Source: Bacteroidota bacterium (GTDB lineage: Bacteria > Bacteroidota > Bacteroidia > Chitinophagales > Saprospiraceae). Taken from it: a DNA stretch of 60,520 nucleotides. The stretch covers positions 1-60,520 of the forward strand of contig DROJ01000138.1 in assembly GCA_011321935.1 (NCBI GenBank), read 5' to 3'. The first letter of the stretch is position 1; every line of letters begins with the position of its first letter. Under the pieces are notes generated by a model. The model saw only the letters and a program-made list of their open reading frames with translations. It made no database searches and was not told where the DNA came from. The position numbers and the translations under genes are program-made. This document shows, one piece after another, positions 218 to 60,291 of the stretch.

Positions 218-659
218 GTAACTACTGCAGTGATTCGTAATTAGTTGATTAGTGATTAGTTCGTCAAATCCTTGATAATGTGGTATTTACCAAAAAATAA
301 ATAGTCCGCTAATTACGAATCGAACCACTACTCAGATGGTTCAAACTATAATTTCACTAACCCCCGGTTTCCTGCCTGCCGGTACGTCCGCATGGACAGG
401 CCGGCAACCGGGGGGCAAGCATCACACAAATCTGGGTTTTAACCCAAAAATGTTTACGTTTATTTTGGGTTAAAACACAGACCCCTTGTTGCCTACCCCC
501 GACTAAAGTCGGGGGTTAGTGAAATCATAGCCTGAACTACTTGAGTAGTGGTACAAATCGTAATTAGCTAACCATTTAGTTTTTGGTTAAATGCCACATT
601 ATCAGGGATTTGGAGGACTAATCACTAATCAACTAATTACTAATCACTGCAGTAGTTAC
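218..659. mobile_element. 442-bp MITE-like composite palindrome (GTAACT/AGTTAC termini, TAATCAC-word arms, nested inner hairpins)
   Basis: Termini gtaactactgcag (218-230) and ctgcagtagttac (647-659) are reverse complements, and pairing continues inward for over 100 nt per arm. The core has further hairpins (351-365 with 511-525; 432-480; 496-515). A perfect 8-bp direct repeat AATTGTTT flanks it (210-217 and 660-667). Confidence 0.8.
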
Positions 660-871
660 AATTGTTTTAGGCGCTAAAGTTGTCAACTTTTTAACAGTCG
701 GCAACTTTCCAAAACCACCTCCATTTCTCCTGCTCCCACCGAGTGTTTGTCCGTATTCACCGAAATATCCTGCCTGCTTTTTTTACCATTATTAATTTTG
801 CTGGAAATACAGCATTGAATGTACCCGTGGCACATTGTTTCGGGGCATTTTATGAAAAAAAATCAGGACAG

Positions 872-1438
872 ATGAATAAGTTGATTATTGCTACCGTCTT
901 AATATTTGCCTTTGGCAACATGTACGCGCAGGGCTTTCAGTTCCGTGGTTTTGAATGGGGGACAACAAAAGAAAAAATCAAAAAAAACGAGCGCGCACCC
1001 TTCGTCTTGGAAAAGGACAACCTCTTGCAGTACCGCTCTACTTTGGGCGATTATGATGCCGACCTGGAATATTATTTCAGCATTGACGGTGAACTCATGG
1101 GCGCCAGATATACCGTCCGCAAACGCTACAAAGACCTACAAGACCATTTCAAAGAATTTGATTTCTTTACCGAACTGCTGACGGAAAAATACGGGAAGCC
1201 CGTTGCCATCCAGATTGTCAAAGAAGAGGTGAACGTCAACAATGTCGGATCGCTCATCGCCAGCCTCAAATCCGGGGATTTTGCCCAAGAAATAAAATGG
1301 GACTTGCCCGATACGGCCATCCAACTGACCCTCACCGGGGAAGGGAAAGATGTCATCATGGTTATCAATTACCAGTCTAAAAAATACGGCAAAATGAACC
1401 ACCAATTGAAAAGGGAAATGGTGCTGAAAGATTTGTAG
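872..1438 (+). CDS. hypothetical secreted protein
   Basis: ORF 743-1438 trimmed to the ATG at 872. MNKLIIATVLIFAFGNMYAQ looks like a signal peptide. No domain recognised. Confidence 0.6.
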   Translation: MNKLIIATVLIFAFGNMYAQGFQFRGFEWGTTKEKIKKNERAPFVLEKDNLLQYRSTLGDYDADLEYYFSIDGELMGARYTVRKRYKDLQDHFKEFDFFTELLTEKYGKPVAIQIVKEEVNVNNVGSLIASLKSGDFAQEIKWDLPDTAIQLTLTGEGKDVIMVINYQSKKYGKMNHQLKREMVLKDL

Positions 1439-1535
1439 TGCCGGGCTGAACAGGCAAGGAGGGGCATGGGGACTAAAAAGGCATTATGGTATTATGGTAT
1501 TAAAATATCTGAATGCCTTTTTAATATCTTAGTTT

Positions 1536-1605
1536 TACTTTGACACTTTATATTTTCACTAACGCCGAGTACTCGGGGTTAGTGAAAATATAAAGTGTCA
1601 AAGTA
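1536..1605. repeat. 70-bp palindrome between convergent genes (CACTAAC-word family), likely bidirectional terminator
   Basis: tactttgacactttatattttcactaac...gttagtgaaaatataaagtgtcaaagta. The arms are reverse complements around a ccgagtactcgggg centre. It shares ttcactaac/gttagtgaa with the 351-525 hairpin. Confidence 0.75.
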
Positions 1606-1619
1606 GAATTATAGTTTAA

Positions 1620-2489
1620 TCAATAAAAAACATATTGGTAGTCTGTTAAAAACAGTAACTTCCCTTTTTCATATTCTTTGTACCTGATATAACGGCCGTT
1701 TTTATATACCTTTTCATATCGGTAATCCTTGCCCGTGGTAATGGCCTGCCATAATTTTCCGTTTTTGTATTTATATTCCGTTTTTTCTTTTTCCGCTGTT
1801 TTCAGCCAAACCGTTTCTTTGGTTTTTAATTGGTTTTCGCCGTTGTAATAATAAGTGGTTTCCTTTTCGGCTTTGCCTTTGGCATCGTAATAAGTTGATT
1901 TTATTTTCTTTTTAATAATAGGGTCAAATTGGTGGATGGTTTTGAGTTTAATAGATTTTCCATTGTCGTCAAAAGTATATTCCATCACCCCGAACAGGCT
2001 GTCAATGGCATTATAGTTCATTACTTTGCGGGTCATCAAAGCCCACCTATTATTGGTGGGTTCCCCTTTCCAAAAAGTTTTTTCTTCCAGTGTTTTTCCT
2101 TTTTTGTCAATATATTGGACAGTGCGCAGGTCAATGTCTTTTTCTTTTATTTCCGCTATTTTACGGTCGAGGTGATAAGTGTATTCTACCTTTCGGCTAT
2201 GCTTTTCATTTTTTATTTCTATTTCTTTTAAACGCTGTTTATCGTCGTAATGGTAATAATATATTTCATCATCTAAATTATTGGTCACCCATTCGTCCAA
2301 TTGCCCGTCCCGACGGAATTTATAAACCGCATCTTTGATCGTTTCCTCTGGGCCATATCCATCCGGCGGGAAGGTCGTCCATTCCGTTATTTGTTTGACG
2401 GGTTTGCTGTCTTTGGGAGCTTTGCCAAAATGTTGCGCATTGATGCAAAAGGGAAATAATAAAATAATAAGGAGGATCAGTTTTCTCAT
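1620..2489 (-). CDS. hypothetical secreted repeat protein (Tyr/Lys-rich, YwqK/MORN-like repeats possible)
   Basis: 289-aa ORF with ATG at 2487-2489 and signal peptide MRKLILLIILLFPFCINAQ. Repetitive YYY/NGK motifs. Family not assigned. Confidence 0.6.
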   Translation of the reverse strand: MRKLILLIILLFPFCINAQHFGKAPKDSKPVKQITEWTTFPPDGYGPEETIKDAVYKFRRDGQLDEWVTNNLDDEIYYYHYDDKQRLKEIEIKNEKHSRKVEYTYHLDRKIAEIKEKDIDLRTVQYIDKKGKTLEEKTFWKGEPTNNRWALMTRKVMNYNAIDSLFGVMEYTFDDNGKSIKLKTIHQFDPIIKKKIKSTYYDAKGKAEKETTYYYNGENQLKTKETVWLKTAEKEKTEYKYKNGKLWQAITTGKDYRYEKVYKNGRYIRYKEYEKGKLLFLTDYQYVFY

Positions 2490-2593
2490 TTTAAAATAGT
2501 ATTTTGAACAATTGATTTACAAAAATAATCTAAATTATAAATTTGTCAAAAGTAAGTTTAATTTAGCAAAATGAAATTCGACAATCATCAATT

Positions 2594-3970: not shown

Positions 3971-4133
3971 TGAATTTTTTCGGATTTTTCGAGGGATTCA
4001 CATCCCTTGCCAAGAAATGCCGTCCCTGCGGGACTAGGATTTGGTGTCATCCATCCTAGTCCCGCAGGGACGGCATTTCCTAGCGAGGGATATGAATCCC
4101 TCGAAAAACCGAAAAAACTCACGAAAAAATTCA
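3971..4133. repeat. ~160-bp imperfect palindrome between convergent genes
   Basis: tgaattttttcgg...gccgtccctgcgggactaggat is mirrored by atcctagtcccgcagggacggc...cgaaaaaattca. The outermost right arm contains the stop codon (4131-4133) of the adhesin gene. Confidence 0.75.
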
Positions 4134-7100
4134 CTTCAAAATCACCACATCCCCTTCCCGAAATACCTCCTTTTCCACGCCACAAAAACGCACCCTTGCT
4201 TTCAGGTACCAGGCATAAACGCCCGGGTTCATCGTTTTGCCCTTAAACCCGCCGTCCCAACCATTTGCCGGCTGGCCGGCGAAAAAAACATGCGCCCCCC
4301 AGCGGTTGAAAACATGCAGCTCAAACGACTGAATATCAATGCCTTGCGCCGCATAAACTTGAAATTTGTCATTGACGCCGTCCCCGTTTGGCGAGAAGGC
4401 ATTGGGGATGTAAAAATAAGAATCCGGCTGCCCTTCCGCCCATTTTACGGTCGCTTCAAGCGCCTCCGTTGCGCATTCGTCGCTCACTTCAAAATGGTAA
4501 ATCCCCGCATCTTCCACGGGCATCCAAGCCTCGGACGAGCCATCCTCCCAACGCCAATTTACTGCCCCGGCATGGCTCAAAACGACGGGGCGGACGGTCG
4601 TTTGCGGGTCGTCGCAGGGCAGGGCATAGTCTTCCACCAAAACATCGAGCGGCGGTTTTTCAAGCACTTCCACGGCTTGCATTTCGGCGCAGCCGTTGGC
4701 GTCCTCCACGGCTATTTCGTAAATGCCGCTTTTCAAATTGGCAAAAACAGTTTGCGCCTGAAAGGCCCCTCCGCCGATAGCGCAACGGAAAGGCGGCGTC
4801 CCCGAAAGCGGAACCACCTCGATAGTCCCGTCCCCTTCGTCCGGGCAACTTTCGCTCGGCTGCAGCTCAAAAGACAGCGCCGGAAAAGCGGCCACACTGA
4901 TAAAAACCAGCGAATCGCAGCCCGCCTGATTGTTCAATTCCAAAACCATTTCGTCGCCGGGCAGGAGGCTAAAGCCCTGATAATCAAGGGTATCGCTTTC
5001 GCAAATATTCAATTCCAAGAAAGTGCTGTCCGCCTGCAAAATGCCTACCGACACCACCACCGTCGAATCGCAGCCCCGGAAAGAAGGCAGCACAAATTCC
5101 CTCGTTTCGCCTGCGGCAATTTCGGTGTTGTTGAACAAAATGCTCTCCCCGCCGCAAGCTTCAAATTGCAAAGTGGAAGGTTCGACAACTATCTCCTCGA
5201 CCGACACCACCACCGTCGAATCGCAGCCCAGAAAAGAGGGCAGCACAAATTCCCTCGTTTCGCCTGCGGCAATTTCGGTGTTGTTGAACAAAATATTTTC
5301 GCCGCCGCAGGCGGCAAATTGCAAAGCCGTTTCGATGGCTTGAAGGCAGGGACTATCCAGCAAAAAATCAACGACGGAAGTATCGCCGCAGCCTTCGATG
5401 GAAATATTTTCACTAAAAATAATCGGCGTATAATAGGCCGGCAGGCCGTTGAGGTCAATGCCCAATTGGTAAGCCCCGCCGGGCATTTCACCAAAAAAAT
5501 ACTGGCCGTTTTCGTTGCTGAAAGTATCGGCCAAAGCGGCCCCGTTTTCGGTCAGCAAAACAGGGATGCCGCTCAACAGGCTGTCGGCTGCGTCAACCTC
5601 CCCGTTGCCGTTGAGGTCAATCCAAACGTGGCCGCTCACCTCGCCCTGTTCGGGCAAAATGGAAATGGAGACGGCCTCCGAAACCGTTTCGCAGCCATAG
5701 ATACTGGTCAGGTGGACTTGGTAATCCCCCGTTTCGGTGGCCTCGTAATTGGCTGCGTTGCCCTCCGGCGCAGCGATGGGCGAGCCGTTCAGAAGCCATT
5801 GGTAATCAGCGACTTCGGGCAGGTCGGGCAGGCATATTTCTTTGCTTTCGCAAGCCGTGAAACAGCCCGAAACGAGGTTGCCCAAGCCCGGCGCATTGTG
5901 TATTTCTATCTCGTTGCTCTTGGCTGTGCAGCCAAAAGAATTGGTCGCCAAAACGAGGTAAGTGCCTCCGGCAAATGCACTGATCGAGGTGCCCGTTTGC
6001 CCCGTGTTCCAGAGATAATCATTTGCAGGGTCGGCATTTTCCACAAAAAAATCGGCCTCGCCGCCCGCACACAAGGGGCCCGGCGGATCGGACGAAATAG
6101 AGACCTCCGAGGGCAGGGCATGGACGGAAACCGGAAAGGGTCCGACTACCGCTGTGCAGCCCGAAACCACCTCGGTCACAGTGACCGAAAATTCGTGGTT
6201 GCCGACAGGCAGCAGGCCGCTGCCCTCCTCCGTCAGTGCCAATTGGCCGCCCGTTGTGCCGTCGGGCCACTGATAAAAATAACGCGGGTTGCCGTTCATT
6301 TCCAGATAGACCTCGTTGCCCTCGCAGGTCGAATAGCTGTTCTCGTGATAGGCGGTTGGCTGGCCAAATTCGTTGAGTTCGACTGCCCGGATGAGGGCAA
6401 CAGGGGCGGGCAAAACTTCCAATCCAACGGCAGGCGGGCTGTATTCACAACCTTTTGAATCGGTCAAAGTCACTTCGTAAATGCCTGCTTCAGAGGTAGT
6501 TATGCCCGAACCCGTTCCTCCGCTCGACCATGCCCAAGCCACTCCTCCGGGCGGTGCCTGAAAGCTGGCCTGCGTGCCTTCGCAAATGGGCGCAGGGTCG
6601 TCGGGGGTGATGTTGCCCGAGAGGTCATTGGCTTCGATGGACACGCTGGAGGTGAATGTTTGGCGGCAGCCGTAAATACTTTCGGCGGTCAGTGCCACCT
6701 CAAATTGCCCAGCAAAAGGGTAGGCGTGGTAGGTGTTTTCTTTTTGCGAAAAATTGGCGTCGCCGCTCCCTGCGTCGCCAAAATCCCAGCTAAAAACGGC
6801 CACGTCGGCGGGTGCGTCGGCCTCGAAGTGCAAGGCCGTTGCGGCGCAAAGAGCAGCGGGCGCACCGAAGCTGACCGCAGGCGGCGCATGGATGGTTATT
6901 TCTTTTGAAAATACGGCTGTGCAGCCCTCCGACGAAGTGGCCAACAGGGTGACATTATAGCTGCCCGGCGCAGAAAAAACGTGCTCGGGATGCTGCAAAC
7001 CGGAGGCATTGGCCGAGCCGCTTGCCGGGTCATCGAAGTCCCAATGCCAGCCCGAAATACTGGTGTTGGGCAGGTAATTGGAAACGTCCGTAAATCGGAC

Positions 7101-7977
7101 GGCAAGCCCGGTACAACTGCCTTCCACCTCGAATGCGGCCTGCAGGGGAACGACGATGTCGGCATGTTTTCCGATATAACAGGTTGGTGGACTGCCGTCC
7201 AAATTGGGAGTTTCGATAGCGAGAATGACTGAAAAAAAACCGGGATGGCTAAAGTTGTGGCTTGGATGTTCTTCAACGGAACTGCCATCCTGGAACTGCC
7301 ATTGCCAAGTGCCCGGAATGGCATTTACCGATAGGTTGTTGAATTGAAATTCATTGCAGGTCGTATTGTTCCACGTAAAATCCGCCGTTCCCTGCGGGTT
7401 GCAGGTGCTTGGTGAGGATACCACACATTGCCCGTTTTCACAATGCCCGCCCGCTGCTTCACAGTCAGGAATGTATATCGAATTGGATTGCCCGGTGCAG
7501 CCGTTTTCGTTGGTCACTACCACATAATAAATGCCGCTCTCATTGACGGCAAGAGTGGCTTGGCCGCTGCCCGTTTTAATGCCGTCCTTGTACCATTGGT
7601 ACAGGTAGCCGTTGCCTGTTTGCGTAGCGTAAATAGTAGCGCCTGCGCTTCCCGGGCATAAGCCTCCAACGAAAGAAGGAGCTGAAATAAAAACCTCCGG
7701 TTTCTCTTTTTCGAGGATGGTAAAATTGGTTTTGGAAGAGCAGCCGTTGCCGTCGTCGGCCTCCAGCACATAGCTCCCCGCAGTCAGTTGCGGAGCAGCT
7801 AAGTGGCTGACAACCAGTCCGTTTTGGTTCGTCCATTCATAGCTCTGGTAGCTTTGCAGGGTACTCACTTCGCTGGTTTCGCTTTCGCAAATAAAGACCG
7901 GGAAGTCAACTTCTGGCGCCTCCGGCGAACTTATGTTTACCTCAAAATCGGCCTCGCTTCCGCAGCCGTTCAGGTGG
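4131..7977 (-). CDS. C-terminal fragment of split adhesin (PKD/Ig-like repeats plus gliding-motility-associated C-terminal domain, CHU_C / T9SS type B)
   Basis: The track ORF 4131-7868 starts at a GTG. The same frame stays open to 7977 (IHLNGCGSEADFEVNISSPEAPEVDF...). The C-terminus YIPNAFSPNGDGVNDKFQV...FNRWG...WDG is the CHU_C signature. There is no signal peptide or credible start. Confidence 0.8.
5048..5327. repeat. 153-bp (51-codon) tandem duplication inside the adhesin CDS
   Basis: ccgacaccaccaccgtcgaatcgcagccc... occurs at 5048 and again at 5201. It encodes LQF(A/E)ACGGE(N/S)ILFNNTEIAAGETREFVLPSF(L/R)GCDSTVVVSV twice with very few differences. Confidence 0.85.
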
Positions 7978-8093
7978 ATAGTGGTACAAATCGTAATTAA
8001 CTAACCATTTAGTTTTTTGTTAAATGCCACATTATCAGGGATTTGGCGGACTAATCACTAGTCAACTAATTACTAATCACTGCAATAGTTGCA
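7978..8093. mobile_element. 116-bp half-copy (one arm) of the TAATCAC-word MITE, inserted in the adhesin gene
   Basis: tagtggtacaaatcgtaattaactaaccatttagttttttgttaaatgccacattatcagggatttggcggactaatcactagtcaactaattactaatcactgcaatagttgca is about 90 percent identical to the right arm at 547-659. It supplies the premature stop at 8066-8068 (read-through ...TATIAVISN*). Confidence 0.8.
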
Positions 8094-11000
8094 GTACCTG
8101 CCTGCTGCCAAAAAACCTCCACCTGCGCCGTTCCCTGCCCCCCGGTGATGGCCCCCGCCTGCGGCGGGCTGACCGACCATTCGTAATTTATATTTTCATA
8201 AAAACCGGTTTCGTAAAATGCGGAATTTTCGCGGCAAAGGGAGGCATCGCCGCTGATTTCGAGCCCGGGCAGCGGGGCGGGGTAAACGATAAACGACGGA
8301 GATTGGCAGCCCGGGCTGTTCCAGTCTTCTTGTGAGACAATGAGGGCATAAGGTGGCGAACTTGCCCATTTTACATTGATGGAGCGGCCTGTTTTTTCGT
8401 AAAAATCAATGCCGTTCCTGATGAACCAAGAATAGGTCGCATTTTCCAAATTGGAGGAAACTTGGTAGTTATAGGCCTGTCCGGGGCAGATGTTCATTTC
8501 GCCCAAAATGGTATCGAGGGGAGGGGGCAGCGCAAAGACTTCGACCTGCAGCCCCAACTCCCCGTTGCAGCTTTCCCCTGCGGGAAATGCGCGGACGGAA
8601 TAAGTGCCGGCACCGAAATCAAAGGTCGGATGGATGCCCGTAACGGGGGAGTCGGAAGCCCACATTTCCACCCCGTGCACGTCGTAAATAAACCAATCGG
8701 CTTCCACAAATGGGTAGCCCGAAACTTGGGAGTGGGTGAAGGAAGGACTGCTGCCCTCGCATATTTCTATCGGCCCGTTTATCAGCGTGGGCGGTCTCAT
8801 CTGCAGGGGCAGTTCGCCATTTCCGGCGCAGCCGAGGAAGCAGTTTTGGTAGCTTATTTTTATCAGGCCGGAGGCATTGTTGCCGTCGAAATCGCCCCAT
8901 CGGACGCTGATTTTCGGCGTGCCCTGTCCCTCCAAAATAAGCCCAAAAGAAGGCACTTCCCATTGATAATCAGCGCCTTGTACGGCTTCTATAAAATATT
9001 CCGTTTCAGTATTTGGGCAGACGATGACCTGCCCTTCGATGTCCGTTTGGTTGCTGATGATGGAGATTTTCTGCCGCACTGTTTTCGGGCAAATGTTGCC
9101 GGTGCAGGCCGATACTTGCAGGCTGACATCGCCCGAACTTCCGCCGTTCCATTGGATGGTCACGAAGTCGTCGGCCTGCCCGCCGCCGCTGATTACCGAG
9201 CCGTTCGGGCTGTTGCCCCACTCGTAATTTCCGCAAACAACATTGCTGCGGTAGGTCGCCGTATCGCCCTCGCAAACGGGGCCGAGGCAAAGGATTTCGG
9301 GTATCTCCGCATCCGATACCTCGACCCTAACGGAGGTGGTATCGCTGCAATAGCAGCCGTTGCGGGCGATGAGTTTCACTTCGTAAATGCCCGGTTCGTA
9401 AAAGGTGTGCAGCGCGTCTTTGACCAAAGAAACTGTGCCGTCGCCAAAGTCCCAAATGAAAGAACTGCTTGCCGTGCTGTTGTTGGTAAATTGGACTGTT
9501 TCGGCCTTGCAGAGATCAATGATATTATTGACAGCAGCAGGCACGGAGGTGAAAACGGCTTTTGGTTCTTTTAAAATTTCGATGCAGCGTTGGCCTTCTT
9601 GTTGGCAGTCGGGGGGGCAGGTGAGGGTGATGTATTCGGTGGTGGTTTCGCCGTTGCTGAGGTTGGTGTAGTTGATTTGGTATGGACCGGCAGGAAGTTC
9701 AGTGAATGGAACGAGGGAACCTGGCCCTTGATATTGCAGATATACCGTATCGCTTCTACTAAAACCTGTTTCTAAATTGATTAGGTTTATAAAAAATGGA
9801 TGTGACGGTGAACCACTGATAATTGGAGAAAAATCATTATTGTGGAGTCCCCGAAAAAAGATAATTCCGTCTTCTTCTCCGCATGAAGAAGGGCCGACTG
9901 AATTGGCAAAGGTTTCATAACGGGCTTCTGTGGTTATTTCAACCGAGCATGATTTGGTATTGCCCGTTGCATCCCTGATTTGATATTCATATACACCGAC
10001 ATTTAGAGAAGGTACAACATGGATCTCTCCACTATAAAACTGAGACCAGGACAAGCCGCCGTTTTCTGAAATTTCTATCCCTCCGGCATATGAGTTTCCT
10101 ATTATGAATGAGGCGCCAAGCTGATTTGTTGAATCAATGACCTGTGAAACTTGCCCACAATCCACCTGCAAATAATCCTTATCATCCAAGATAGAAACCT
10201 TGACCTCGCCGCTGCCTGCCTCGCCCCATTCCACGGTTACTTCGTTGCCATTGGCCGTGTAATCAACGCTGCCGTTTACCTCCCAAATGACGGGCATCTG
10301 CTCTGGGTTTTCCACCGAGTAGGTGACGGTGGAATTTTCGCAGACCTTTTCGCAGCTTTCGGGAGAGGAGGGGCAGAGGGAGGTGGATTGGATGGGGAGT
10401 ACAAGGTCGTTTGAAAAAATATACGGCTCGCTGTATTCCCATCCACAGGCGGCGGCATTGACGGCTATCCGAATATGTGTCCAGTTCAGTTCATCGCACC
10501 TTATTAATAAGGTATCGGAACTTGAACCCCCGACCAAGCATTCATTTTGCCCATTTTCGAGGTCAACATAGTTGGTGCCGTCGGCGGAGACCTGCCATTG
10601 GTACTCCGTTAACAAGCCTGCGGGGTCGTTGATCGGCTGCTCCAGTTCTGCGACAAATAGCATTTCTTCGCCCGGCGAAAAACAGCCGTCAAAATAAAAA
10701 TCAGAAACGTAAACATCGGTGTTGGTAAATCCGCAGTCGCAGGGGTCGGAGGCGTTTGGAATGCCGTCGTTGTCAATGTCGGAATCAATTTCATTCGCTA
10801 TTCCATCGCCGTCAAAATCACAGATAGCTCCACATGCGTCAGGGACGCAAGGTTCTAAATCATCTGGGTCAAAAAGCGGATCAGAGGCCAATACACCCGA
10901 GAAATAGCCATCGTTGTCAATGTCACCTCCGCCCGAGCAGCCCTGAGCGACAGTAAAGCAAGCACTCCCATTACAGCCCTGCGCATCCACCGTTTCGACG

Positions 11001-11236
11001 CAGTAAGTCCCCGGTGAAAAAATAGAAATAGCCCAAGGGGAAGCGCTGTTTTCAAATTCCCCGTCGGTGCTGCTCCAAGTGGTGGACGGATAGTATGTAT
11101 TCAGTCCGAGTAGCTGATAAGGGGCGTCGGGGCAGTAGCCTGTTGCTCCAATAATCACCGGGTCGCATTGCCCCACCAATAGAGCAGGCAGCCCGACCAT
11201 TGCAATCAACCAAAGAAAAAGCGCTCGTAAAACCAT
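8066..11236 (-). CDS. N-terminal fragment of split adhesin (signal peptide, thrombospondin-type-3-like Asp repeats, Ig/PKD-like modules)
   Basis: ORF 8066-11245, with ATG at 11234-11236 giving MVLRALFLWLIAMVGLPALLVGQ. Recurrent module ends of the form V.V.W...G...V.V....C. The last 9 codons and the stop are encoded by the inserted repeat. No sorting domain. Confidence 0.8.
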   Translation of the reverse strand: MVLRALFLWLIAMVGLPALLVGQCDPVIIGATGYCPDAPYQLLGLNTYYPSTTWSSTDGEFENSASPWAISIFSPGTYCVETVDAQGCNGSACFTVAQGCSGGGDIDNDGYFSGVLASDPLFDPDDLEPCVPDACGAICDFDGDGIANEIDSDIDNDGIPNASDPCDCGFTNTDVYVSDFYFDGCFSPGEEMLFVAELEQPINDPAGLLTEYQWQVSADGTNYVDLENGQNECLVGGSSSDTLLIRCDELNWTHIRIAVNAAACGWEYSEPYIFSNDLVLPIQSTSLCPSSPESCEKVCENSTVTYSVENPEQMPVIWEVNGSVDYTANGNEVTVEWGEAGSGEVKVSILDDKDYLQVDCGQVSQVIDSTNQLGASFIIGNSYAGGIEISENGGLSWSQFYSGEIHVVPSLNVGVYEYQIRDATGNTKSCSVEITTEARYETFANSVGPSSCGEEDGIIFFRGLHNNDFSPIISGSPSHPFFINLINLETGFSRSDTVYLQYQGPGSLVPFTELPAGPYQINYTNLSNGETTTEYITLTCPPDCQQEGQRCIEILKEPKAVFTSVPAAVNNIIDLCKAETVQFTNNSTASSSFIWDFGDGTVSLVKDALHTFYEPGIYEVKLIARNGCYCSDTTSVRVEVSDAEIPEILCLGPVCEGDTATYRSNVVCGNYEWGNSPNGSVISGGGQADDFVTIQWNGGSSGDVSLQVSACTGNICPKTVRQKISIISNQTDIEGQVIVCPNTETEYFIEAVQGADYQWEVPSFGLILEGQGTPKISVRWGDFDGNNASGLIKISYQNCFLGCAGNGELPLQMRPPTLINGPIEICEGSSPSFTHSQVSGYPFVEADWFIYDVHGVEMWASDSPVTGIHPTFDFGAGTYSVRAFPAGESCNGELGLQVEVFALPPPLDTILGEMNICPGQAYNYQVSSNLENATYSWFIRNGIDFYEKTGRSINVKWASSPPYALIVSQEDWNSPGCQSPSFIVYPAPLPGLEISGDASLCRENSAFYETGFYENINYEWSVSPPQAGAITGGQGTAQVEVFWQQAGTATIAVISN

Positions 11237-11452
11237 AGGAAACAAGGATTAAATATTTGTAAAAATAGAAGGGGAGGCCTCGCCTGCGGCGAGAAATAAG
11301 GGCGAGAGAAAAGGATAGTTTTTGTTGGAAAGGGAGATTGGAGGTGGCGTCAAAATCAGCACTGCCACCTTTTATATTATAAAATGGAATGTTTAACGAG
11401 GGTCAAAAAACGAGCCAGAGGGGTATCCTTAAACGTCCGGATTTTTTGGTCA

Positions 11453-11514
11453 GTCTCCTTGCCCTTCCGAAAGAGGGGGAATTAATTCCCCCTCTTTCGG
11501 AAGGGCAAGGAGAC
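11453..11514. repeat. 62-bp perfect-stem palindrome, GGGAAT family
   Basis: gtctccttgcccttccgaaagagggggaattaattccccctctttcggaagggcaaggagac. The same family occurs at 12896-12967, 13068-13107, 13207-13259, 16159-16202, 60108-60140 and 60213-60252. Confidence 0.85.
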
Positions 11515-11566
11515 GGGCTGAAATGTTCCGACTTTGGATGATTGAAATGATACCAAGAGGGGGCAT

Positions 11567-12895: not shown

Positions 12896-13356
12896 CCCCC
12901 GTCTCCGTGCCCTTCCGAAAGAGGGGGAATTTATTCCCCCTCTTTCGGAAGGGCACGGAGACGGGGGCTTGGGGTTCGATATTTTTTCTAAAAAACTAAT
13001 TTCGGGTCAATTTCAAAAGCCGATCTTCGCCCCTCTCGCCGCCGATTTTTCGCGAAGCGCAGCCAGGAATAAATTCCCCCTCTTTCGGAAGGGCACGGAG
13101 ACGGGGGTTTGGATTCGGTGTTTTTTCCAAAAAAACTGATTTTTGATTAAATTCAAAAGCCGATTTTCGCCCCTCTCGCCGCCGATTTTTCGCGAAGCGC
13201 AGCCAGGAGAGAGAGGGGGAATAAATTCCCCCTCTTTCGGAAGGGCACGGAGACGGGGGTTTGGATTCGGTGTTTTTTCAAAAAAAACTGATTTTTGATT
13301 AAATTCAAAAGCCGATCTTCGCCCCTCTCGCCGCCGATTTTTCGCGAAGCGCAGCC
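12896..13356. repeat. 3-unit tandem array (140-170 bp units): GGGAAT-family hairpin + spacer + copy of the last 52 nt of ribH
   Basis: tcaaaagccgat(c/t)ttcgcccctctcgccgccgatttttcgcgaagcgcagcc occurs at 13013-13064, 13153-13204 and 13305-13356. The last copy is the real ribH 3' end. Each copy is preceded by ...ggaagggcacggagacggggg(t/c)ttgg(a/g)ttcgg.... Confidence 0.85.
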
Positions 13357-13820
13357 ATGCGGATGGCACTCACTGCGGCCTCCACGCCTTTGTTGCCGTG
13401 CTTGCCGCCTGCCCGGTCGAGTGCCTGTTGGTGGGTGTTGGGGGTGAGCAATCCAAAAATGCAGGGGATGCCCAATGCCAGTCCCAAACCGGTGAGGCCA
13501 GTGGCCACGGCATGGTTGATATACTCGTCGTGCTTGGTCTCGCCTTTGATGACTGCGCCGAGGCAGATGAGGGCGTTGAGCCTTTTGCCGGAGGCGAGTG
13601 TTTTTGCACCGAAGGGCAGTTCAAAAGCCCCCGGTACTTGGGCAACAAATATGTTTTCCTCTTTTGCGCCATGCTTGACGAGCGTTTCAAAACAGCCTTC
13701 GTAAAGGGCATGGGTGATGTCGGCGTTCCAGTCGGAAACGACAATCCCGAAGCGCATGTCTTCGGCGGAAGGGATGTTTTTTTCGTTGTAATCGGAAAGG
13801 TTTTTTAATGCGGAAGCCAT
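13305..13820 (-). CDS. ribH: 6,7-dimethyl-8-ribityllumazine synthase
   Basis: ORF trimmed to ATG 13818-13820. RFGIVVSDWNADIT, QVPGAFELP, LICLGAVIKGETKHDEYI and AGGKHGNKGVEAA are typical RibH motifs. The C-terminal 16 codons lie in the tandem repeat. Confidence 0.9.
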   Translation of the reverse strand: MASALKNLSDYNEKNIPSAEDMRFGIVVSDWNADITHALYEGCFETLVKHGAKEENIFVAQVPGAFELPFGAKTLASGKRLNALICLGAVIKGETKHDEYINHAVATGLTGLGLALGIPCIFGLLTPNTHQQALDRAGGKHGNKGVEAAVSAIRMAALREKSAARGAKIGF

Positions 13821-13823: not shown

Positions 13824-13892
13824 TTGACGGTTGACGGTTGACGGTTGACGGTTGACGGTTGATCCCGAAGAACTTCGGGAACGGTTGACGGG
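13824..13892. repeat. (TTGACGG)x5 heptamer array plus small hairpin in the ribH 5' region
   Basis: Five exact ttgacgg units (13824-13858), then ttgatcccgaagaacttcgggaacggttgacggg. Confidence 0.8.
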
Positions 13893-16158: not shown

Positions 16159-16202
16159 CGTCTCCATGCCCTTCCAAAAGGGTGGGAATTTATTCCCACC
16201 CC
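16159..16202. repeat. GGGAAT-family hairpin (gggtgggaat variant) containing the stop codon of the downstream CDS
   Basis: ctccatgcccttccaaaagggtgggaatttattcccaccc (16162-16201) is identical over 40 nt to 60213-60252. The stop (16190-16192) sits in the palindrome centre. Confidence 0.85.
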
Positions 16203-19290: not shown

Positions 19291-19582
19291 CAGAGTTTGA
19301 AAAACCAGAGTTTGAGAGAGTGAGAGTTTGAGAGTTTGAGAACAGTATTAAGAAGGGACTTTTTGGTACTCGTTCGAGAGGCCAATTAGGGTTTGAGAGA
19401 GTTTGAGAGAGTTTGAGAGAGTTTGAGAATTTGAGAGCAGTAACGAGAAGGGACTTTTTGGTACTCGTTCGAGAGGTCTAAAAGTCCCTTCTCGCTACTG
19501 CTCTCAAACTCTCAAACTCTCAAACTCTCACTCTCTCAAACTCTCTCAAACTCTCTCAAACTCTCACTCTCTCAAACTCTGG
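19291..19582. repeat. ~290-bp hairpin element with GAGAGTTTGAGAG word arms
   Basis: Arms of (gagagtttgagag)n at 19291-19345 and 19391-19435 face (ctctcaaactctc)n at 19499-19582. There is an internal 31-nt direct repeat agaagggactttttggtactcgttcgagagg at 19351 and 19446. The 3' end of the TlpA-like CDS lies inside. Confidence 0.8.
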
Positions 19583-20904: not shown

Positions 20905-20928
20905 TGTGCCAGTTGGATGGTGATTAGT

Positions 20929-20994
20929 GGATTAGTGGATTAGTGATTAGTGGATCAGTTATCAGTGATTAGTGGATTAGTGATTAGTGATTAG
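20929..20994. repeat. GTGATTAG word tandem tract
   Basis: gtgattagtggattagtggattagtgattagtggatcagttatcagtgattagtggattagtgattagtgattag. Confidence 0.8.
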
Positions 20995-23630: not shown

Positions 23631-24605
23631 ATGAATTTCAAAAAAATACAAAGCGGAGAGCCGGTCCACCTTGCCTTTTTGGGCTGCGGCGGCGTTACGG
23701 TCAAGCACAGCAAAACGTTGAAAGGTTTTAAAAATGTAAAATTGTATTACGCCAGCCGCTCTGCGGAAAAGGCCAATATTTTTAATAAAAAATGGAAAGG
23801 CGAGGGGGCTTTTGGGACTTACGAGGCGGCCATTTCATCGGAAAAAATAGACCTCGTGCTGATAGCCACGCCGCCCGACAGCCATTTGGAACTGGCGCTG
23901 AAAGCCATCCGGGCGGGCAAGCACGTCATCGTCGAGAAGCCGCCTTTTATGAAATCGGGCGACTTTGACTTGATCGCAGCGGAAAGGGAAAAGGCAGGCG
24001 TGCAGGTGATGGTGGCCGAAAATTATTTTTACAAACCCCTTTTAAAAAAACTGAAACAACTGCTCGCCACTGACCTGATCGGCGAAACCCGGTTCCTCTT
24101 TTTTAATTCCACAAAAAAACAAACGACGGGCGACTGGCGCGATACAACCAATGTGGCAGGCGGCGGCTCTCTCTTTGAAGGAGGCATACATTGGATCAAC
24201 TTCATTTCCAACCTCGGCCTGACCATCCATTCGCTGACCGGTTTCAGGCCTTTTCCAAACAGAAAAACGATAGAAAGAAGCATGCAAGTAGTGGCCAAAT
24301 ACGAAGAAGGCCCCGTTGCCACTTTGCTGTATTCTTGGGAGATCAAAGCCCTGCTGAACGGGCTGCGCATCTCGCGGATATACGGCACGCGCGGCTCGAT
24401 CACCTTCGAGTCCAACGGCGTTTTTATTTTTGTGAGAGGGAAAAAATGGAAGTTCATCTTCCCCGGTTTCGCCGACATCGGCGGCTCGAAAGGGATGTTC
24501 AAAGATTTTTTCAAAGCATTGCGCAGCGGAGAAGAACCGGCGTTCAATCTGGCAATGGCCAAAAGGGACCTGGAACTGGTGGAGGAGGCGTATTTAAATG
24601 GTTAA
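23631..24605 (+). CDS. Gfo/Idh/MocA-family NAD(P)-dependent oxidoreductase
   Basis: Trimmed to ATG 23631. VHLAFLGCGGV is the Rossmann start, followed by LVLIATPPDSHLELALKAIRAGKHVIVEKP (EKP motif). The stop (24603-24605) lies in the AATGGTTAA word repeat. Confidence 0.85.
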   Translation: MNFKKIQSGEPVHLAFLGCGGVTVKHSKTLKGFKNVKLYYASRSAEKANIFNKKWKGEGAFGTYEAAISSEKIDLVLIATPPDSHLELALKAIRAGKHVIVEKPPFMKSGDFDLIAAEREKAGVQVMVAENYFYKPLLKKLKQLLATDLIGETRFLFFNSTKKQTTGDWRDTTNVAGGGSLFEGGIHWINFISNLGLTIHSLTGFRPFPNRKTIERSMQVVAKYEEGPVATLLYSWEIKALLNGLRISRIYGTRGSITFESNGVFIFVRGKKWKFIFPGFADIGGSKGMFKDFFKALRSGEEPAFNLAMAKRDLELVEEAYLNG

Positions 24606-24710
24606 ATGGTTAAATGGTTAAATGGTTTTTCCAGCACGACGAGTACGCATCGTGCGGGAAAAACCATTTAAACCATTCAACCATTTAGCCATTTAGCCAT
24701 TCAAACCCAT
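24594..24710. repeat. hairpin with AATGGTTAAATGG word arms
   Basis: (ttaaatgg)n ... loop ccagcacgacgagtacgcatcgtgcggg ... (ccatttaa/ccatttag)n. Same family and a related loop at 56466-56669. Confidence 0.85.
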
Positions 24711-24762
24711 TCATTACCTTTGCGCCCCAAAAACGGGAAAACATACAAACAGCACTAAAAAG

Positions 24763-25873: not shown

Positions 25874-26055
25874 CCGAATGCCTGTCCGAGAGGCAGGAAT
25901 TTTTGTGCACTTACCCTGCCCTTATTAAAATGATACATTTTCATTTTAATTTTGGCGGTGCGTCAAATGTAATGCTGGCAAAAAGCGAAAGCCCCTGTGT
26001 TCTCTGTGTTCCCTGTGGTTCTTCGGCATTACAGATACACAGCCTTAATTTTTTT

Positions 26056-26098
26056 GTAACTGTTTAACATCACCTCAAAGGCCCTGCTAAACAGTTGC
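26056..26098. mobile_element. 43-bp minimal member of the GTAACT-terminus MITE family
   Basis: gtaactgtttaacatcacctcaaaggccctgctaaacagttgc, flanked by ATTTTTTT on both sides (26048-26055 and 26099-26106). It lies 10 bp upstream of the ATG at 26109. The TSD is low-complexity, so it is weaker evidence. Confidence 0.6.
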
Positions 26099-26108
26099 AT
26101 TTTTTTTT

Positions 26109-27326: not shown

Positions 27327-27375
27327 TCAGTGATCAGTGATTAGAAATCAGTGATCAGTGATTAGTGATCAGTTG
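27323..27375. repeat. GTGATCAG/GTGATTAG word tract overlapping the stop codon
   Basis: gtgatcagtgatcagtgattagaaatcagtgatcagtgattagtgatcagt. The stop tga is at 27324-27326. Confidence 0.8.
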
Positions 27376-27458
27376 GGAAATGTTTGTGCGGACGGTCAGT
27401 TTTTCTCCGGAATCCTTTGATTGTCAAAGGATTGAAAAATATTGTTTTTTAAAATAAA

Positions 27459-27616
27459 CTAACTGCTCAGGTAGGCCGTGCATTGGTAGCACGGCCTTTA
27501 GGCTGTCCCGGCCAAAGACGTTTACGTCGTTGCATGGTTTGAAAATTGGCAACGACGTAAACGTCTTTGACCGGGACAGCCTAAAGGCTGTGCTACCAAC
27601 ATACCTGGGCAGTTAC
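27459..27616. mobile_element. 158-bp palindromic MITE (CTAACTG...CAGTTAC termini)
   Basis: The arms pair almost end to end (ggtagcacggcctttaggctgtcccgg..aaagacgtttacgtcgttgc). A perfect 8-bp direct repeat AAAATAAA flanks it at 27451-27458 and 27617-27624. The core is related to 36502-36638. Confidence 0.8.
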
Positions 27617-27765
27617 AAAATAAAACATCAAAATTGTTAAACCCTTAAAGTAGAACCGCAGGTTGCCGATCAATTGAAAATATTGATGGATTTTCTGCGG
27701 AACACTTGCCTGCTATCCAATTTATTGGCAGGCAAACTTTTTTTTGACACCTATATAAATTACAC

Positions 27766-28737: not shown

Positions 28738-28770
28738 CCGGGGAATTGATCTCCTTTGCAGTATAGAGGG

Positions 28771-28877
28771 GCTGTTCAATAAAGTGTTTCTCACGCAAAG
28801 ACGCAAAGGCGCAAAGTGTTGAAATTCAAATCTTTGCGCCTTTGCGCCTTTGCGTGAAACCCCCTTTATTGAACACT
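28771..28877. repeat. palindrome, CACGCAAAGGCGC family
   Basis: ctgttcaataaagtgtttctcacgcaaagacgcaaaggcgcaaag ... ctttgcgcctttgcgcctttgcgtgaaaccccctttattgaacac. Related to 30029-30136. Confidence 0.8.
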
Positions 28878-28945
28878 CCCAAAATGATCCTAATTTTCAA
28901 TTTATTTAATAGCAAGAATTGCTGATCTAATAACCGCATCCAAAT

Positions 28946-30136: not shown

Positions 30137-30146
30137 AAAAAAAACT

Positions 30147-36311: not shown

Positions 36312-36501
36312 TCGCTTTGAGCGATAATGGTGGATTTTTTTTGAAAAAACGACCGGGAACGAAAATCCCCGGCCGCCAAGGTCTGTATCTAAAGTTTAAG
36401 ATTTAAGGATTTCGGGTCAATTATCTGCCTTTCAAGACCATTCACGGATATTTTTTGGAAATGGTTGGGCGGGAGTGATTTTTTTTTGAATTTCACTTTT
36501 T

Positions 36502-36638
36502 GTAACTCCTGAGGTCTTTTGGGTTTTGGTAGCACAGCGTTCACGCTGTCCCGGTCACAGACGTTTACGTCTGTGCAAAGGAAAACCAGAGCAACGTGAA
36601 CGTTGTGCTATCGGCGCACAAGCATCCTGGGTAGTTCC
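36502..36638. mobile_element. 137-bp MITE of the GTAACT-terminus family
   Basis: gtaactcctgaggtc...cctgggtagttcc. The core ggtagcacagcg..ctgtcccggtcacagacgtttacgtctgtg is related to 27459-27616. A perfect 8-bp direct repeat CACTTTTT flanks it at 36494-36501 and 36639-36646. Confidence 0.75.
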
Positions 36639-36696
36639 CACTTTTTAATTTTTGTGCCACCGAAACCCGGTTCGGCAGCATAAACCAAATAAATTT

Positions 36697-50464: not shown

Positions 50465-50818
50465 GAAGGGAACGCAAGGCAGGCTTTATTTCAACGCAAG
50501 GTAGTTTTTTTTCAACGCAAGGCAAAGCTTTATTTCAACGCAAGGCCGCTAGGCCGCAAGGGAACGCAAGGCAGGCTTTATTTCAACGCAACGATGTTTT
50601 TTCAACGCAAGGCCGCTAGGCCGCAAGGGAACGCAAGGCAAAGGTTTTTAGTCCTTGCGTTCCCTTGCGGCCTAGCGGCCTTGCGTTGAAAAAACATCGT
50701 TGCGTTGAAATAAAGCCTGCCTTGCGTTCCCTTGCGGCCTAGCGGCCTTGCGTTGAAAAAACATCCTTGCGTTGAAAAAACATCCTTGCGTTGAAATAAA
50801 ATCACCCTTGCGTTGAAA
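50465..50818. repeat. ~350-bp mega-palindrome built from TTGCGTTGAAA / CCTTGCGTTCCCTTGCGGCCTAGCGGCC words
   Basis: The left half carries (tttcaacgcaa / gaacgcaagg / ggccgctaggccgcaaggg) units. The right half, from about 50650, is their reverse complement in mirrored order. Confidence 0.85.
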
Positions 50819-50858
50819 AGCAGTGCGCCCGTTATTTCGCAGGAGCGGGAAAAAAGGG

Positions 50859-52730: not shown

Positions 52731-52782
52731 AAAAAAATAGGACATGGCTTCGCCAACTGTTGGGAAGATTTGTAGAATGGTC

Positions 52783-52933
52783 ATAACTGTTTAGCACCCC
52801 TCCTGAGGTGATGCCTTTGGGCGGGGAGTGTGGGGGGAAAGGCGTTGCCTCAATTCGATATATTGAGGCAACGCCTTTCCCCCCACACTCCCCGCCCAAA
52901 GGCATCACCTCAGGAGGCGTGGTAAGCAGTTAC
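52783..52933. mobile_element. 151-bp palindromic MITE of the GTAACT-terminus family
   Basis: ataactgtttagcacccctcctgaggtgatgcc...ggcatcacctcaggaggcgtggtaagcagttac. A perfect 8-bp direct repeat GAATGGTC flanks it at 52775-52782 and 52934-52941. Confidence 0.85.
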
Positions 52934-52994
52934 GAATGGTCTTCTTGAAAGTTTAAGTGGTTGCGGCGAAGTTAGGGATTGAAACGGAATTTGG

Positions 52995-55206: not shown

Positions 55207-55229
55207 TGAAGAAAAAAGCGGAGCAGCCT

Positions 55230-56294: not shown

Positions 56295-56465
56295 AAAAGA
56301 TTTTTTTTGTGATGATAAATTGCTGATTGAAAGATTTTATTGGATGTGCCGTGAAAATTTGAAAGGGCAAAGGTGTGTATCATTGAACACAAATGTAGAG
56401 CATTTTCCAATTTGGTTTTCATATGCCCAGAAAAGGAATTAAAAACTGCCCGACATTTTTCTTGA

Positions 56466-56669
56466 AATGGTTAAATGGCTGAATGGCTGAATGGTTAAAT
56501 GGTTAAATGGCTGAATGGTTAAATGGCTAAATGGCTAAATGGTTAAATGGTTAAATGGCCCTTCCCGCACGTGGACAACTCGTTCGGAAAAACCATTTAG
56601 CCATTCAGCCATTTAACCATTTAACCATTTAACCATTTAACCATTCAGCCATTCAGCCATTAAACCATA
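56466..56669. repeat. ~200-bp hairpin with AATGG(T/C)T(A/G)AATGG word arms
   Basis: There are 11 or more word units on the left and their complements on the right. The loop cccttcccgcacgtggacaactcgttcggaaaaacc is related to the 24594-24710 loop. Confidence 0.85.
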
Positions 56670-58883: not shown

Positions 58884-58987
58884 TGCAGGGATTAGTAAAT
58901 AAGTGAATAGTTGCCAGTCCACCAAACTCTTGATAGCCAAGTGAACGAACTAATCACTAGTTACTTTTTTACTAATCACTCCAATAG
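58882..58987. repeat. degenerate copy of the TAATCAC-word MITE arm
   Basis: tagtgcaggg...gaacgaactaatcactagttacttttttactaatcactccaatag aligns with ...ggcggactaatcactagtcaactaattactaatcactgcaatag of 7978-8093. It begins at the stop codon tag of the upstream CDS. Confidence 0.55.
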
Positions 58988-59109
58988 ATTTTCAATTTTT
59001 TAACCTCCTTTCTAAGGAAATTCATTGTGTATTGCAGTTTTAATATTTTTTTCGCTACATTGCGCCGCTTTTTGAAACACTAATACACAAAGGATACTTA
59101 AATTAAGAA

Positions 59110-59976
59110 ATGAGAGCTTTAATCATTACTCAGTCCATCACCCGGCGGGACGCTAAATCGCTGGAAAAATACATGACGGAAGTCAGCCGTTATGACCTGC
59201 TTACACCTGAACAGGAAGTTGATTTGTTTCGCAAGTATAAATCCGGGAGTGAAGACGCATTTCAGACTATTGTCAATGCCAACCTCCGATTCGTTATTTC
59301 CGTTGCCAAACAATACCAACACTGTGGGCTGTCTTTGGGAGACCTTATCAACGAAGGGAACCTGGGGCTATTGAAAGCAGCACAACGTTTCGATGAGACT
59401 AAGGGCTTTAAGTTCATTTCCTATGCCGTTTGGTGGATCCGTCAAAGCATCCTTCAGGCAGTGGGTGAAAAATCACGTAAAATACGTGTCCCTTTCAACC
59501 ACCAGTCTAACTTGATGAAGGTGCTTCGCAAAAGGGACCACCTGCTCCAACATCTTGAGCGTGAGCCAAGTATCAAGGAGATTGCCAAGGAAGTAGAAAT
59601 GACCGAAGAAGCCGTAGAAAGGTGCCTGTCAACCAATAACCACTGCGGTTCATTGGATGCTCCGGTTCAAGACGGAGAAGACACCAGCCTTACTTATTTC
59701 CTCGAAGATCAAGGCGTTCCCCGCCCTGATACGAAGGTTGCACAAACCGAATCCTTGCAAAAAGAGATACAAATGCTGCTCAACGGCCTCCAGCCAAATG
59801 AAGCAGAAGTTCTCTCCATGTATTATGGAATAGGCAGGGAACGGCCATGCGGCCTCGAAGAAATCAGCGAACTGATGGGCGTGGGCAAAGAACGCGTCCG
59901 CCAGATCAAGTACAAAGGATTAAAAAAGTTGCAGGCAAAGATCCAGAGCAAAGGATTGCACTTTAGCCTGAACTAA
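59110..59976 (+). CDS. rpoD: primary RNA polymerase sigma factor (Bacteroidota sigma-A type)
   Basis: 288 aa. NLRFVISVAKQY, LINEGNLGLLKAAQRFD, FISYAVWWIRQ and the region 4 GLEEISELMGVGKERVRQIKYKGLKKL. Confidence 0.9.
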   Translation: MRALIITQSITRRDAKSLEKYMTEVSRYDLLTPEQEVDLFRKYKSGSEDAFQTIVNANLRFVISVAKQYQHCGLSLGDLINEGNLGLLKAAQRFDETKGFKFISYAVWWIRQSILQAVGEKSRKIRVPFNHQSNLMKVLRKRDHLLQHLEREPSIKEIAKEVEMTEEAVERCLSTNNHCGSLDAPVQDGEDTSLTYFLEDQGVPRPDTKVAQTESLQKEIQMLLNGLQPNEAEVLSMYYGIGRERPCGLEEISELMGVGKERVRQIKYKGLKKLQAKIQSKGLHFSLN

Positions 59977-60003
59977 ATACCGGATTTTATTTCGGTCAAT
60001 ATA

Positions 60004-60038
60004 AAGTTGGCTTCTCGGAAGGGAAGCCAACTTTTTTT
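60004..60038 (+). terminator. rho-independent terminator after rpoD
   Basis: aagttggcttc ... gaagccaactt stem followed by a T7 run. Confidence 0.8.
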
Positions 60039-60077
60039 GTTTAGCCCAATCGGTACAATGGTCTTTGGATTTTATTT

Positions 60078-60291
60078 GTAACTGCTTAGCACCCCTCGAA
60101 ATCTCAGGGAGGGGGAATAAATTCCCCCTCTTTTAGAAAGGCTTGTAGTCCTGCTCTCTATTGAGAAAAACGATCATAAAAATTTTTGATATTTACGACT
60201 TCTTTTATCTTACTCCATGCCCTTCCAAAAGGGTGGGAATTTATTCCCACCCTATAGACCTCCAGGATTTCGAGTGGTGCTAAGCAGTTAC
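60078..60291. mobile_element. 214-bp GTAACT-terminus element carrying two GGGAAT-family hairpins as cargo
   Basis: gtaactgcttagcacccctcgaaatc (60078-60103) is the reverse complement of gatttcgagtggtgctaagcagttac (60266-60291). The interior holds gagggggaataaattccccctc and the 40-nt ctccatgccc...cccaccc copy. The flanks TTTTATTT and CTTTTAAT are not a clean TSD. Confidence 0.7.

Follow-up and report, generated by a model that had tools for sequence, protein, structure and literature searches.

MITEs (miniature inverted-repeat transposable elements) are short, non-coding sequences with terminal inverted repeats and target duplications of fixed length, which occur in many copies, lie mostly between genes and carry ends that match a resident family of insertion sequences (IS). 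The classical bacterial examples, such as Correia/NEMIS of Neisseria, RUP of Streptococcus pneumoniae and Nezha of cyanobacteria, have parents that are not known to belong to the IS66 family. Repetitive extragenic palindromes (REPs), another class of intergenic hairpins, rely on a Y1 enzyme and are not known to produce target duplications. MITECca01 of Cardinium derives from ISCca4, an element of the IS982 family (PMC9769881). The ISBst12 group of the IS66 family includes ISBst12 and ISDge4; for the latter, from Deinococcus geothermalis, one transposase of 449 aa is reported, together with the inverted repeats GTGACTACTCAGCA / GTAACTGCTCAGCA and a direct repeat of 8 bp (PMC12898284, 2026). Here, we describe a family of elements in a 60,520-nt stretch of an uncultured member of the Saprospiraceae (Bacteroidota; GenBank assembly GCA_011321935.1, contig DROJ01000138.1, positions 1 to 60,520; hereafter the window), which are very probably MITEs derived from and moved by an IS of the ISBst12 group. 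As in that group, the ends begin with 5'-GTAACT (GTAACTGCTCAGCA in ISDge4, GTAACTGYTTAGCA as the window consensus) and the duplication is 8 bp long, whereas the window elements measure 43-442 bp, encode nothing and in several cases share only the first 9-13 nt. The features of classical MITEs listed above are also theirs, the resident IS family being putative here, but palindromy over the whole length and the swapping of hairpin cargo are atypical of classical MITEs. With REPs and bacterial interspersed mosaic elements (BIMEs), they have in common an abundance of intergenic hairpins in a palindrome-rich genome, and they differ in their 8-bp duplications and DDE-type ends.

Nine copies are known in about 78 kb, comprising the window and two contigs of the same organism (L141 and L144) that extend its neighbourhood by about 9.5 and 8.4 kb (Table 1). 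GTAACT-type ends are present on both sides of all full copies, a perfect 8-bp duplication flanks five of the six full copies in the window, the copies form multiple subfamilies, and coding capacity and similarity to transposases are absent from the elements. A blind scan of the window for GTAACT and AGTTAC, each with at most one mismatch, no more than 2 kb apart and flanked by identical 8-mers, returned elements 1-5 and nothing else, while the same configuration had a mean of 0.01 and a maximum of 1 in 100 dinucleotide-preserving shuffles. The sequence-only reading had proposed these five elements, a sixth with the same termini and no clean duplication, and a non-autonomous MITE-like family with 8-bp target-site duplications; all six were recovered where it had placed them, the sixth with a perfect 16-nt inverted repeat and unlike flanks, and the family assignment held up in every test run. 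Its figure of up to about 25 shared terminal nucleotides was too high, as copies 5 and 6 have 19-20 nt in common, of which elements 1, 3 and 4 match no more than the first 9-13 nt, and the 43 to 442 bp that it gave for the interiors are the lengths of whole elements. The 16-mer GTAACTGYTTAGCACC (up to three mismatches) has six matches in the window against 0.57 expected, and the 12-nt core GTAACTRYTYAG (up to one mismatch) has eight against 0.52, every one at element ends; this core was derived from autonomous elements, and its window matches are confined to the ends of elements 2, 3, 5 and 6. The bare hexamer GTAACT is not enriched (17 occurrences against 13.5 expected), and the signal therefore lies in the pairing, the longer common terminus and the duplications. 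Among the duplications, that of element 5 is the least repetitive, while that of element 2 sits in a T-run and is weak taken alone. A scan of the window for any inverted ends with direct repeats of 4-10 bp found no second duplication-bearing family.

Ends beginning with GTAA together with an 8-bp duplication point to the IS66 family, and this lead was then tested. The window termini (GTAACTGYTTAGCACCCCTC) match the inverted repeats of one-gene IS66-family elements of 1.5-1.8 kb that make 8-bp duplications, so that the proposal of the sequence-only reading to look for an IS with such repeats and duplications led to single-ORF (open reading frame) elements of the ISBst12 group. A scan of metagenomes with GTAACTGYTYAGCACCCCT gave 52 loci. 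On metagenome contig L128, the terminus stands on both sides of 1732 bp with one ORF of 498 aa, an IS66-family transposase; on L137 and L132, it encloses 1574 bp with one ORF of 484 aa, which matches Pfam DDE_Tnp_IS66 (1e-45), zf-IS66 and NCBIfam transpos_IS66 (312 bits; 265-312 bits over the three contigs). The same IS66-family gene adjoins the terminus in L136, L115 and L109. In the complete chromosome of Segatella copri (L183), also of the Bacteroidota, an element of 1825 bp has the ends GTAACTGCTCAGCACCCCTAT / GTAACTACTCAGCACCCCTAT, the duplication AGCAACAA (8/8) and an ORF of 491 aa (232 bits), and a Clostridia genome (L164) contains one of 1804 bp with the duplication GAGTTTGA (8/8). The elements of L128, L137, L183 and L164 measure 1.57-1.83 kb, carry one ORF each (447-498 aa; transpos_IS66 232-312 bits) without accessory tnpA/tnpB, and have ends identical to those of the window over 18-20 nt. 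Moreover, two finished plasmids, pKBT91 of Bacillus thuringiensis and one of Chlorohelix, contain elements of 1629 bp (ends GTAACTACTCAGCTT, duplication CTTTTTTC) and 1504 bp (ends GTAACAATTCAGCC, duplication AATTATTT), respectively, both annotated as IS66 family transposase and encoding relatives of the L137 protein. Although identity between the transposases of L128 and L137 is only about 37%, the first 19 nt of the terminus are common to them, and every transposase met beside this terminus belongs to the IS66 family. The IS encoding P0033, a 59% relative of the L128 transposase, has the ends GTAAYTGACTACTAC, and the terminus beyond about base 7 is therefore variable within the group. Single hits of the 18-mer genome scan are not evidence, because about 70 are expected by chance (1.2e12 positions x 5.8e-11, our own estimate), and a locus was used only where a partner end, a duplication or a transposase accompanied the hit.

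Short derivatives with the same ends recur elsewhere. Gene-less pairs of 60-250 bp with 8/8 duplications were found in a freshwater Bacteroidota metagenome-assembled genome (MAG; JBEAYO01, L001), in Lachnospiraceae (L006, L173, L193), Blautia (L195) and Fusobacterium (L221), and on four metagenome contigs (L092, L093, L095, L140), with about 12 further pairs having 7/8 duplications; their recurrence in several groups indicates that IS of the ISBst12 type commonly spawn MITEs. These elements resemble the window copies in the 18-20-nt terminus and the 8-bp duplications, but their bodies are unrelated in sequence to the window copies and they are palindromic only over 16-19 nt. No such element beyond the two already known was present in about 990 kb of mgsA loci from related and unrelated Bacteroidota, and no description of a MITE derived from IS66/ISBst12 was found in the literature searched. 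In a Lachnospiraceae MAG (UBA2734; L002 512-1437), 926 bp that include an ORF for a membrane protein of 152 aa lie between a left end in degenerate form, GTATCTGTTTATCTCC, and a right end of the canonical type, without a duplication; the two ends may be unrelated, or they may form a MITE pair that brackets a passenger gene.

In the mechanism that we propose, the parent IS would be 1.5-1.8 kb long, with one DDE transposase gene between inverted repeats starting 5'-GTAACTRYTYAGC. Transposase from an autonomous copy elsewhere in the genome, present or former, would bind the terminal 10-20 nt of both ends; the ends would be joined to AT-rich, mostly intergenic target DNA that is cut with a stagger of 8 bp, and gap repair would leave the 8-bp direct repeats. 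Because only the ends would be required, the interior would be free to vary; in this genome it consists of stem-loops, some from hairpin families also found alone, with arms complementary end to end in several copies. Mobilisation in trans and the presence of a cognate IS in the genome are inferred, as are the time of the last movements and any present activity. What is new is that the parental IS group is identified: this is a MITE family of the ISBst12 group, with an unusual hairpin architecture and otherwise a fairly ordinary mobile element.

Table 1. Coordinates, ends and flanks of the nine elements; positions refer to the window unless a contig is named.
Element	Position	Length	With duplications	Strand	Flank / ends / flank
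1	218-659	442 bp	210-667 (210-217, 660-667)	.	AATTGTTT / GTAACT...AGTTAC / AATTGTTT, duplication 8/8
2	26056-26098	43 bp	26048-26106	.	ATTTTTTT / GTAACT...AGTTGC / ATTTTTTT
3	27459-27616	158 bp	27451-27624	.	AAAATAAA / CTAACT...AGTTAC / AAAATAAA
4	36502-36638	137 bp	36494-36646	.	CACTTTTT / GTAACT...AGTTCC / CACTTTTT
5	52783-52933	151 bp	52775-52941	.	GAATGGTC / ATAACT...AGTTAC / GAATGGTC
6	60078-60291	214 bp		.	perfect 16-nt inverted repeat GTAACTGCTTAGCACC; unlike flanks TTTTATTT / CTTTTAAT
7 (half copy of element-1 type)	7979-8092			-	ends GCAACT at 8092
8	L141 15621-15743				without duplication
9	L144 15910-16062				flanks agree 6/8

Elements 1, 3 and 5 fold end to end as one hairpin (z -19 to -30), with arms 90-96% complementary. 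Element 1 is a palindrome over nearly its whole length (arms of 82 nt at 90% and 81 nt at 83%; minimum free energy -254 kcal/mol, z -30), in which subterminal arms composed of GTGATTA-like heptamers surround inner TTTCACTAACCCCCG hairpins; the same hairpin is contained in element 8 and stands free at 1553-1588. Its termini GTAACTACTGCAG agree with GTAACTACTCAG of IS66-type right ends, and its first nine bases equal the right ends GTAACTACT of L137, L183 and the B. thuringiensis IS. Element 3, with the terminus GTAACTGCYCAGGT, is a whole-length hairpin with 51-nt arms at 96% (z -19) and has a core in common with element 4 (46 nt at 91%). Element 4, which lies between the divergent genes for an extracytoplasmic function (ECF) sigma factor and mgsA, has the termini GTAACTCCTGAGG / GGAACTACCCAGG and is a decayed relative of element 3 with about 24 nt deleted from its right arm.

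The canonical terminus GTAACTGYTTAGCA(CC) is borne by elements 2, 5, 6 and 8. Element 2 is a minimal copy, consisting of a 13-nt left end and a 30-nt right arm, GCAACTGTTTAGCAGGGCCTTTGAGGTGAT, to which the arms of elements 5 and 9 are homologous; it terminates 10 nt upstream of the start ATG of a gene for a CDP-alcohol phosphatidyltransferase. A promoter and terminator scan around elements 2 and 3 gave nothing above chance, and an Rfam search at the elements gave no match. Element 5 is an almost perfect hairpin with canonical termini (74-nt arms at 95%, z -24), and its sister copy is element 9, with which it shares its core and an unusual ATAACTG left end. The start codon of a 641-aa gene call in NCBI sources (52782-52784) is composed of the last duplication base and the first AT of element 5, while the ENA/Logan call of the same gene, of 628 aa, begins 39 nt further in, with a signal-peptide-like MKKK shortly after. 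Directly adjoining element 9, the sequence GTAACTTAAAGTTAC (L144 15895-15909) contains two bare termini 3 nt apart and could be an extremely reduced copy or a footprint.

Element 6 has a perfect 16-nt inverted repeat inside 26-nt ends that pair with one mismatch. Its interior is not palindromic and contains two hairpins of another family, of the GGGGGAATWWATTCCCCC type, which are 100% identical over 25-40 nt to 12918-12942, 13213-13237 and 16162-16201, so that the nesting suggested by the sequence-only reading is borne out. This hairpin family (CCCTTCCGAAAGAGGGGGAATWWATTCCCCCTC...) is free-standing at 11425-11542, 12896-13259 and 16162-16201 and shows no target duplications; a 152-bp unit of which it forms a part lies in three tandem copies at 12925-13357. 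Synteny with the closest relative, L145 (6868-7030), breaks just past the rpoD terminator, exactly at element 6: in L145, rpoD and its terminator are followed by a gene for a major facilitator superfamily transporter, whereas the window has an amino-acid kinase gene there, which suggests that the repeat is the site of an assembly join or of a rearrangement. The flanks of element 8 are inverted, not direct, repeats.

Element 7 is one arm of about 113-114 nt; in a BLAST comparison of the elements with the window, 112 nt of it aligned with the right arm of element 1 at 95.5% identity. It lies at the junction of two adhesin-like ORFs on the minus strand (8066-11236 and 4131-7868) with PKD, CHU_C and type IX secretion system (T9SS) domains. 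The upstream ORF stops eight codons inside element 7, the downstream frame is open from the element edge, and deletion of 7980-8092 fuses ...FWQQAGT|IHLNGCGSEA... in one frame; element 7 has therefore probably split an adhesin gene of more than 2300 codons.

The ORFs of the window fit a gliding member of the Bacteroidota (T9SS sorting domains, GldC and SprB repeats), and its MgsA reaches no more than 85% identity with proteins from MAGs of the Saprospiraceae. The same DNA is present in the hydrothermal-vent metagenome assembly ERZ940665 and in the samples SRR7787185 and ERZ23491050; source runs of this population are SRR4453772 / PRJNA290104 and SRR7787185. Empty sites were sought by exact-protein look-ups with the genes adjoining elements 1-6, which led only to the same strain in these three samples, filled at every site; 90% clusters of nine flanking proteins contained no near relative save for RpoD. 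The closest relative, L145 (RpoD 97.6% identical), is without elements 5 and 6, and its spacers do not align; L008 and L009 are without element 4, and their spacers are too diverged for one copy of the 8-mer to be recognised. In addition, six short-read contigs of the same strain, L088, L142, L143, L266, L268 and L270, end inside elements 4, 6, 6, 3, 5 and 1, respectively. L088, which comes from another sample, stops in the middle of the element 4 hairpin, L268 about 30 nt before the centre of element 5, and the rest within an arm; the elements thus fragment short-read assemblies.

Several observations weigh against an ISBst12-group MITE family. In four of the five duplicated copies, base 1 or base 2 of one terminus is changed, elements 6 and 8 are without a duplication and the flanks of element 9 agree at only six of eight positions, and the fit of elements 1, 3, 4 and 9 to the canonical inverted repeat extends no further than the first 9-13 nt, so that these divergent copies may need a different, related transposase or be dead. 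Neither the window nor the added flanking contig of roughly 18 kb (about 78 kb in total) showed an autonomous copy or a transposase remnant. As the sequence-only reading had already held, no transposase of any family was found in the window by Pfam searches of its ORFs and by tblastn; two IS66 transposases as queries gave only E > 0.6, and the elements are derivatives rather than IS copies. A scan of species genomes contained no close relatives of the L128 transposase, and none of 3589 transposase relatives from a protein search could be linked to the window organism, the multi-copy P0033 coming from other samples. Neither an empty site nor a presence/absence polymorphism was found, as the assemblies of all three samples are 99.8-100% identical and filled. 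Moreover, full-length elements on the metagenome contigs L128, L137 and L115 are also without duplications. On the contigs of the P0033 IS (L258-L264), the flanks AAAAGTTT and TATTTTTT are swapped between contigs with the same IS; full-length IS on metagenome contigs thus often seem to be without duplications because flanks that belong to different copies become joined in assembly. At elements 6 and 8, recombination between copies or assembly joins across identical repeats can account for the absent duplications. The altered termini, the decayed and internally deleted element 4, the half copy, the lack of a transposase in about 78 kb and of polymorphism among three samples would all agree with relics, spread by a past ISBst12-type transposase and now immobile, either neutral or co-opted as hairpins (e.g., terminators or structural DNA/RNA signals). 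However, all five duplications are still 8/8 though presumably free to mutate, and the odd ATAACTG end shared by elements 5 and 9 was still usable when element 5 inserted, because its duplication is perfect. Arm complementarity of 95-96% likewise argues for recent origin or active maintenance, and we regard a relic state as possible but somewhat improbable. An 8-bp duplication length is not specific to one IS family, and a partner IS of another such family (ISL3, IS256, IS1595, IS6 or ISAs1), with a coincidental likeness to IS66 ends, could further draw on the agreement of elements 1, 3 and 4 with ISBst12-type ends over only 9-13 nt. This is very unlikely, given that the ends of elements 5 and 6 are identical over 19-20 nt to those of elements bearing IS66 transposases, that only such transposases were found beside the terminus, and that ISDge4 has the same ends and duplication length (PMC12898284). 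The least probable reading is that of REP/BIME-type structural palindromes or plain terminators, spread by a Y1 enzyme (REP-associated tyrosine transposase, RAYT) or by recombination, with flanking repeats due to chance or target preference. The genome is indeed rich in palindromes without duplications (4.3% of bases against 0.37% in shuffles), but five perfect 8-bp duplications stand against 0.01 expected, the same ends with duplications occur in unrelated phyla, no RAYT or IS200/IS605-type gene is among the window ORFs and Rfam is blank at the elements; we regard this reading as refuted by the duplication statistics.

A further alternative concerns the hairpin bodies, namely that the whole-length palindromes are not simple deletion derivatives of an IS but arose, and arise anew, by fold-back (template-switch) synthesis on one IS end, or that arm conversion keeps them symmetrical. 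Because MITEs with the same ends elsewhere have inverted repeats of just 16-19 nt and non-palindromic bodies, whole-length palindromy is special to this genome. Between elements 5 and 9, 10 of 66 stem pairs differ, each on both arms, and no pair is broken, which points to selection for the stem, arm-to-arm conversion, or origin of the palindrome from one arm. Fold-back or conversion would account for the variable cargo together with these symmetrical differences, and the existence of a one-armed copy (element 7) and the inverted flanks of element 8 are in keeping with it. However, elements 5 and 9 are the sole informative sister pair, the pair of elements 3 and 4 being uninformative owing to the deletion, and selection for the stem could yield the same pattern. 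The arms of element 1 have not been homogenised, because its right arm resembles the half copy (95.5%) more than it does the left arm of the same element (90%). We consider this alternative unlikely. Equally tentative is the broader idea that ISBst12-type ends might act as a hairpin vehicle, in which palindromic MITEs are generated or regenerated from one arm by fold-back, or symmetrised by arm conversion, and each new palindrome picks up a stem-loop beside the end, so that a DDE transposon would help to spread and diversify other hairpin families; this seems improbable as well.

Beyond the ISBst12-type MITEs, the window is rich in other repeats. Exact inverted repeats of 12 nt or longer, taken within 600 nt, hold 4.3% of its bases as against 0.37% in shuffles, and the MITE copies account for about 15% of these bases. 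The sequence-only reading had seen in the family a mobility mechanism for part of the palindrome load; the family does have a share, but a minor one. The remaining palindromes are without duplications and comprise opposed arrays of 7-8-nt repeats, stand-alone hairpin families and a palindrome with 109-nt arms (50530-50761), and they need another explanation. Tandem arrays of 7-8-nt units (AATGGTTA, AGAGTTTG, GTGATTA, TTAAATGG, AGTGATC and TTGACGG) lie at 56465-56668, 19307-19580, 20920-20994, 24594-24713, 27322-27373 and 13824-13862, often as two opposed arrays that form long palindromes. GTGATTA is also a building block of the subterminal arms of element 1, and similar arrays lie upstream of mgsA in the related Saprospiraceae L008 and L009. 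At 50471-50819, repeats of 19-23 nt and 67 nt form the palindrome whose 109-nt arms are 99% complementary, between a GldC-like and an Exo_endo_phos gene; the ENA contig L141 of the same strain begins inside it, at 50557. In a row of plus-strand genes (27326-30147) for a CDP-alcohol phosphatidyltransferase, a radical SAM/SPASM protein, LPG_synthase_TM and a second CDP-alcohol phosphatidyltransferase, every spacer has a long palindrome, namely element 3, 28768-28880 and 30028-30138; the latter two are related to each other and have no duplications. Another palindrome with 65-nt arms (3976-4117) has in each arm a match just above the gathering threshold (37) of Rfam Acido-Lenti-1, at 3990-4035 (+, 37.5 bits) and 4058-4103 (-, 38.6 bits). 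A string near 52960 resembles a clustered regularly interspaced short palindromic repeat (CRISPR) but is single-copy, and no array is present.

With these results, a previously unexplained palindrome family of uncultured Saprospiraceae is assigned to a defined system, the single-gene ISBst12 branch of IS66, whose mechanism has been little studied. The 18-20-nt terminus is constant across transposases of about 37% identity and across several phyla, and it therefore offers a sequence handle for annotating such IS and their derivatives in metagenomes. The elements also matter for the quality and annotation of MAGs, because short-read assemblies break at their centres and a half copy has probably split a large adhesin gene. 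Moreover, the compensated differences between the sister copies are a hint that some process maintains the symmetry of long palindromes, which would be of wider interest if it were found genome-wide.

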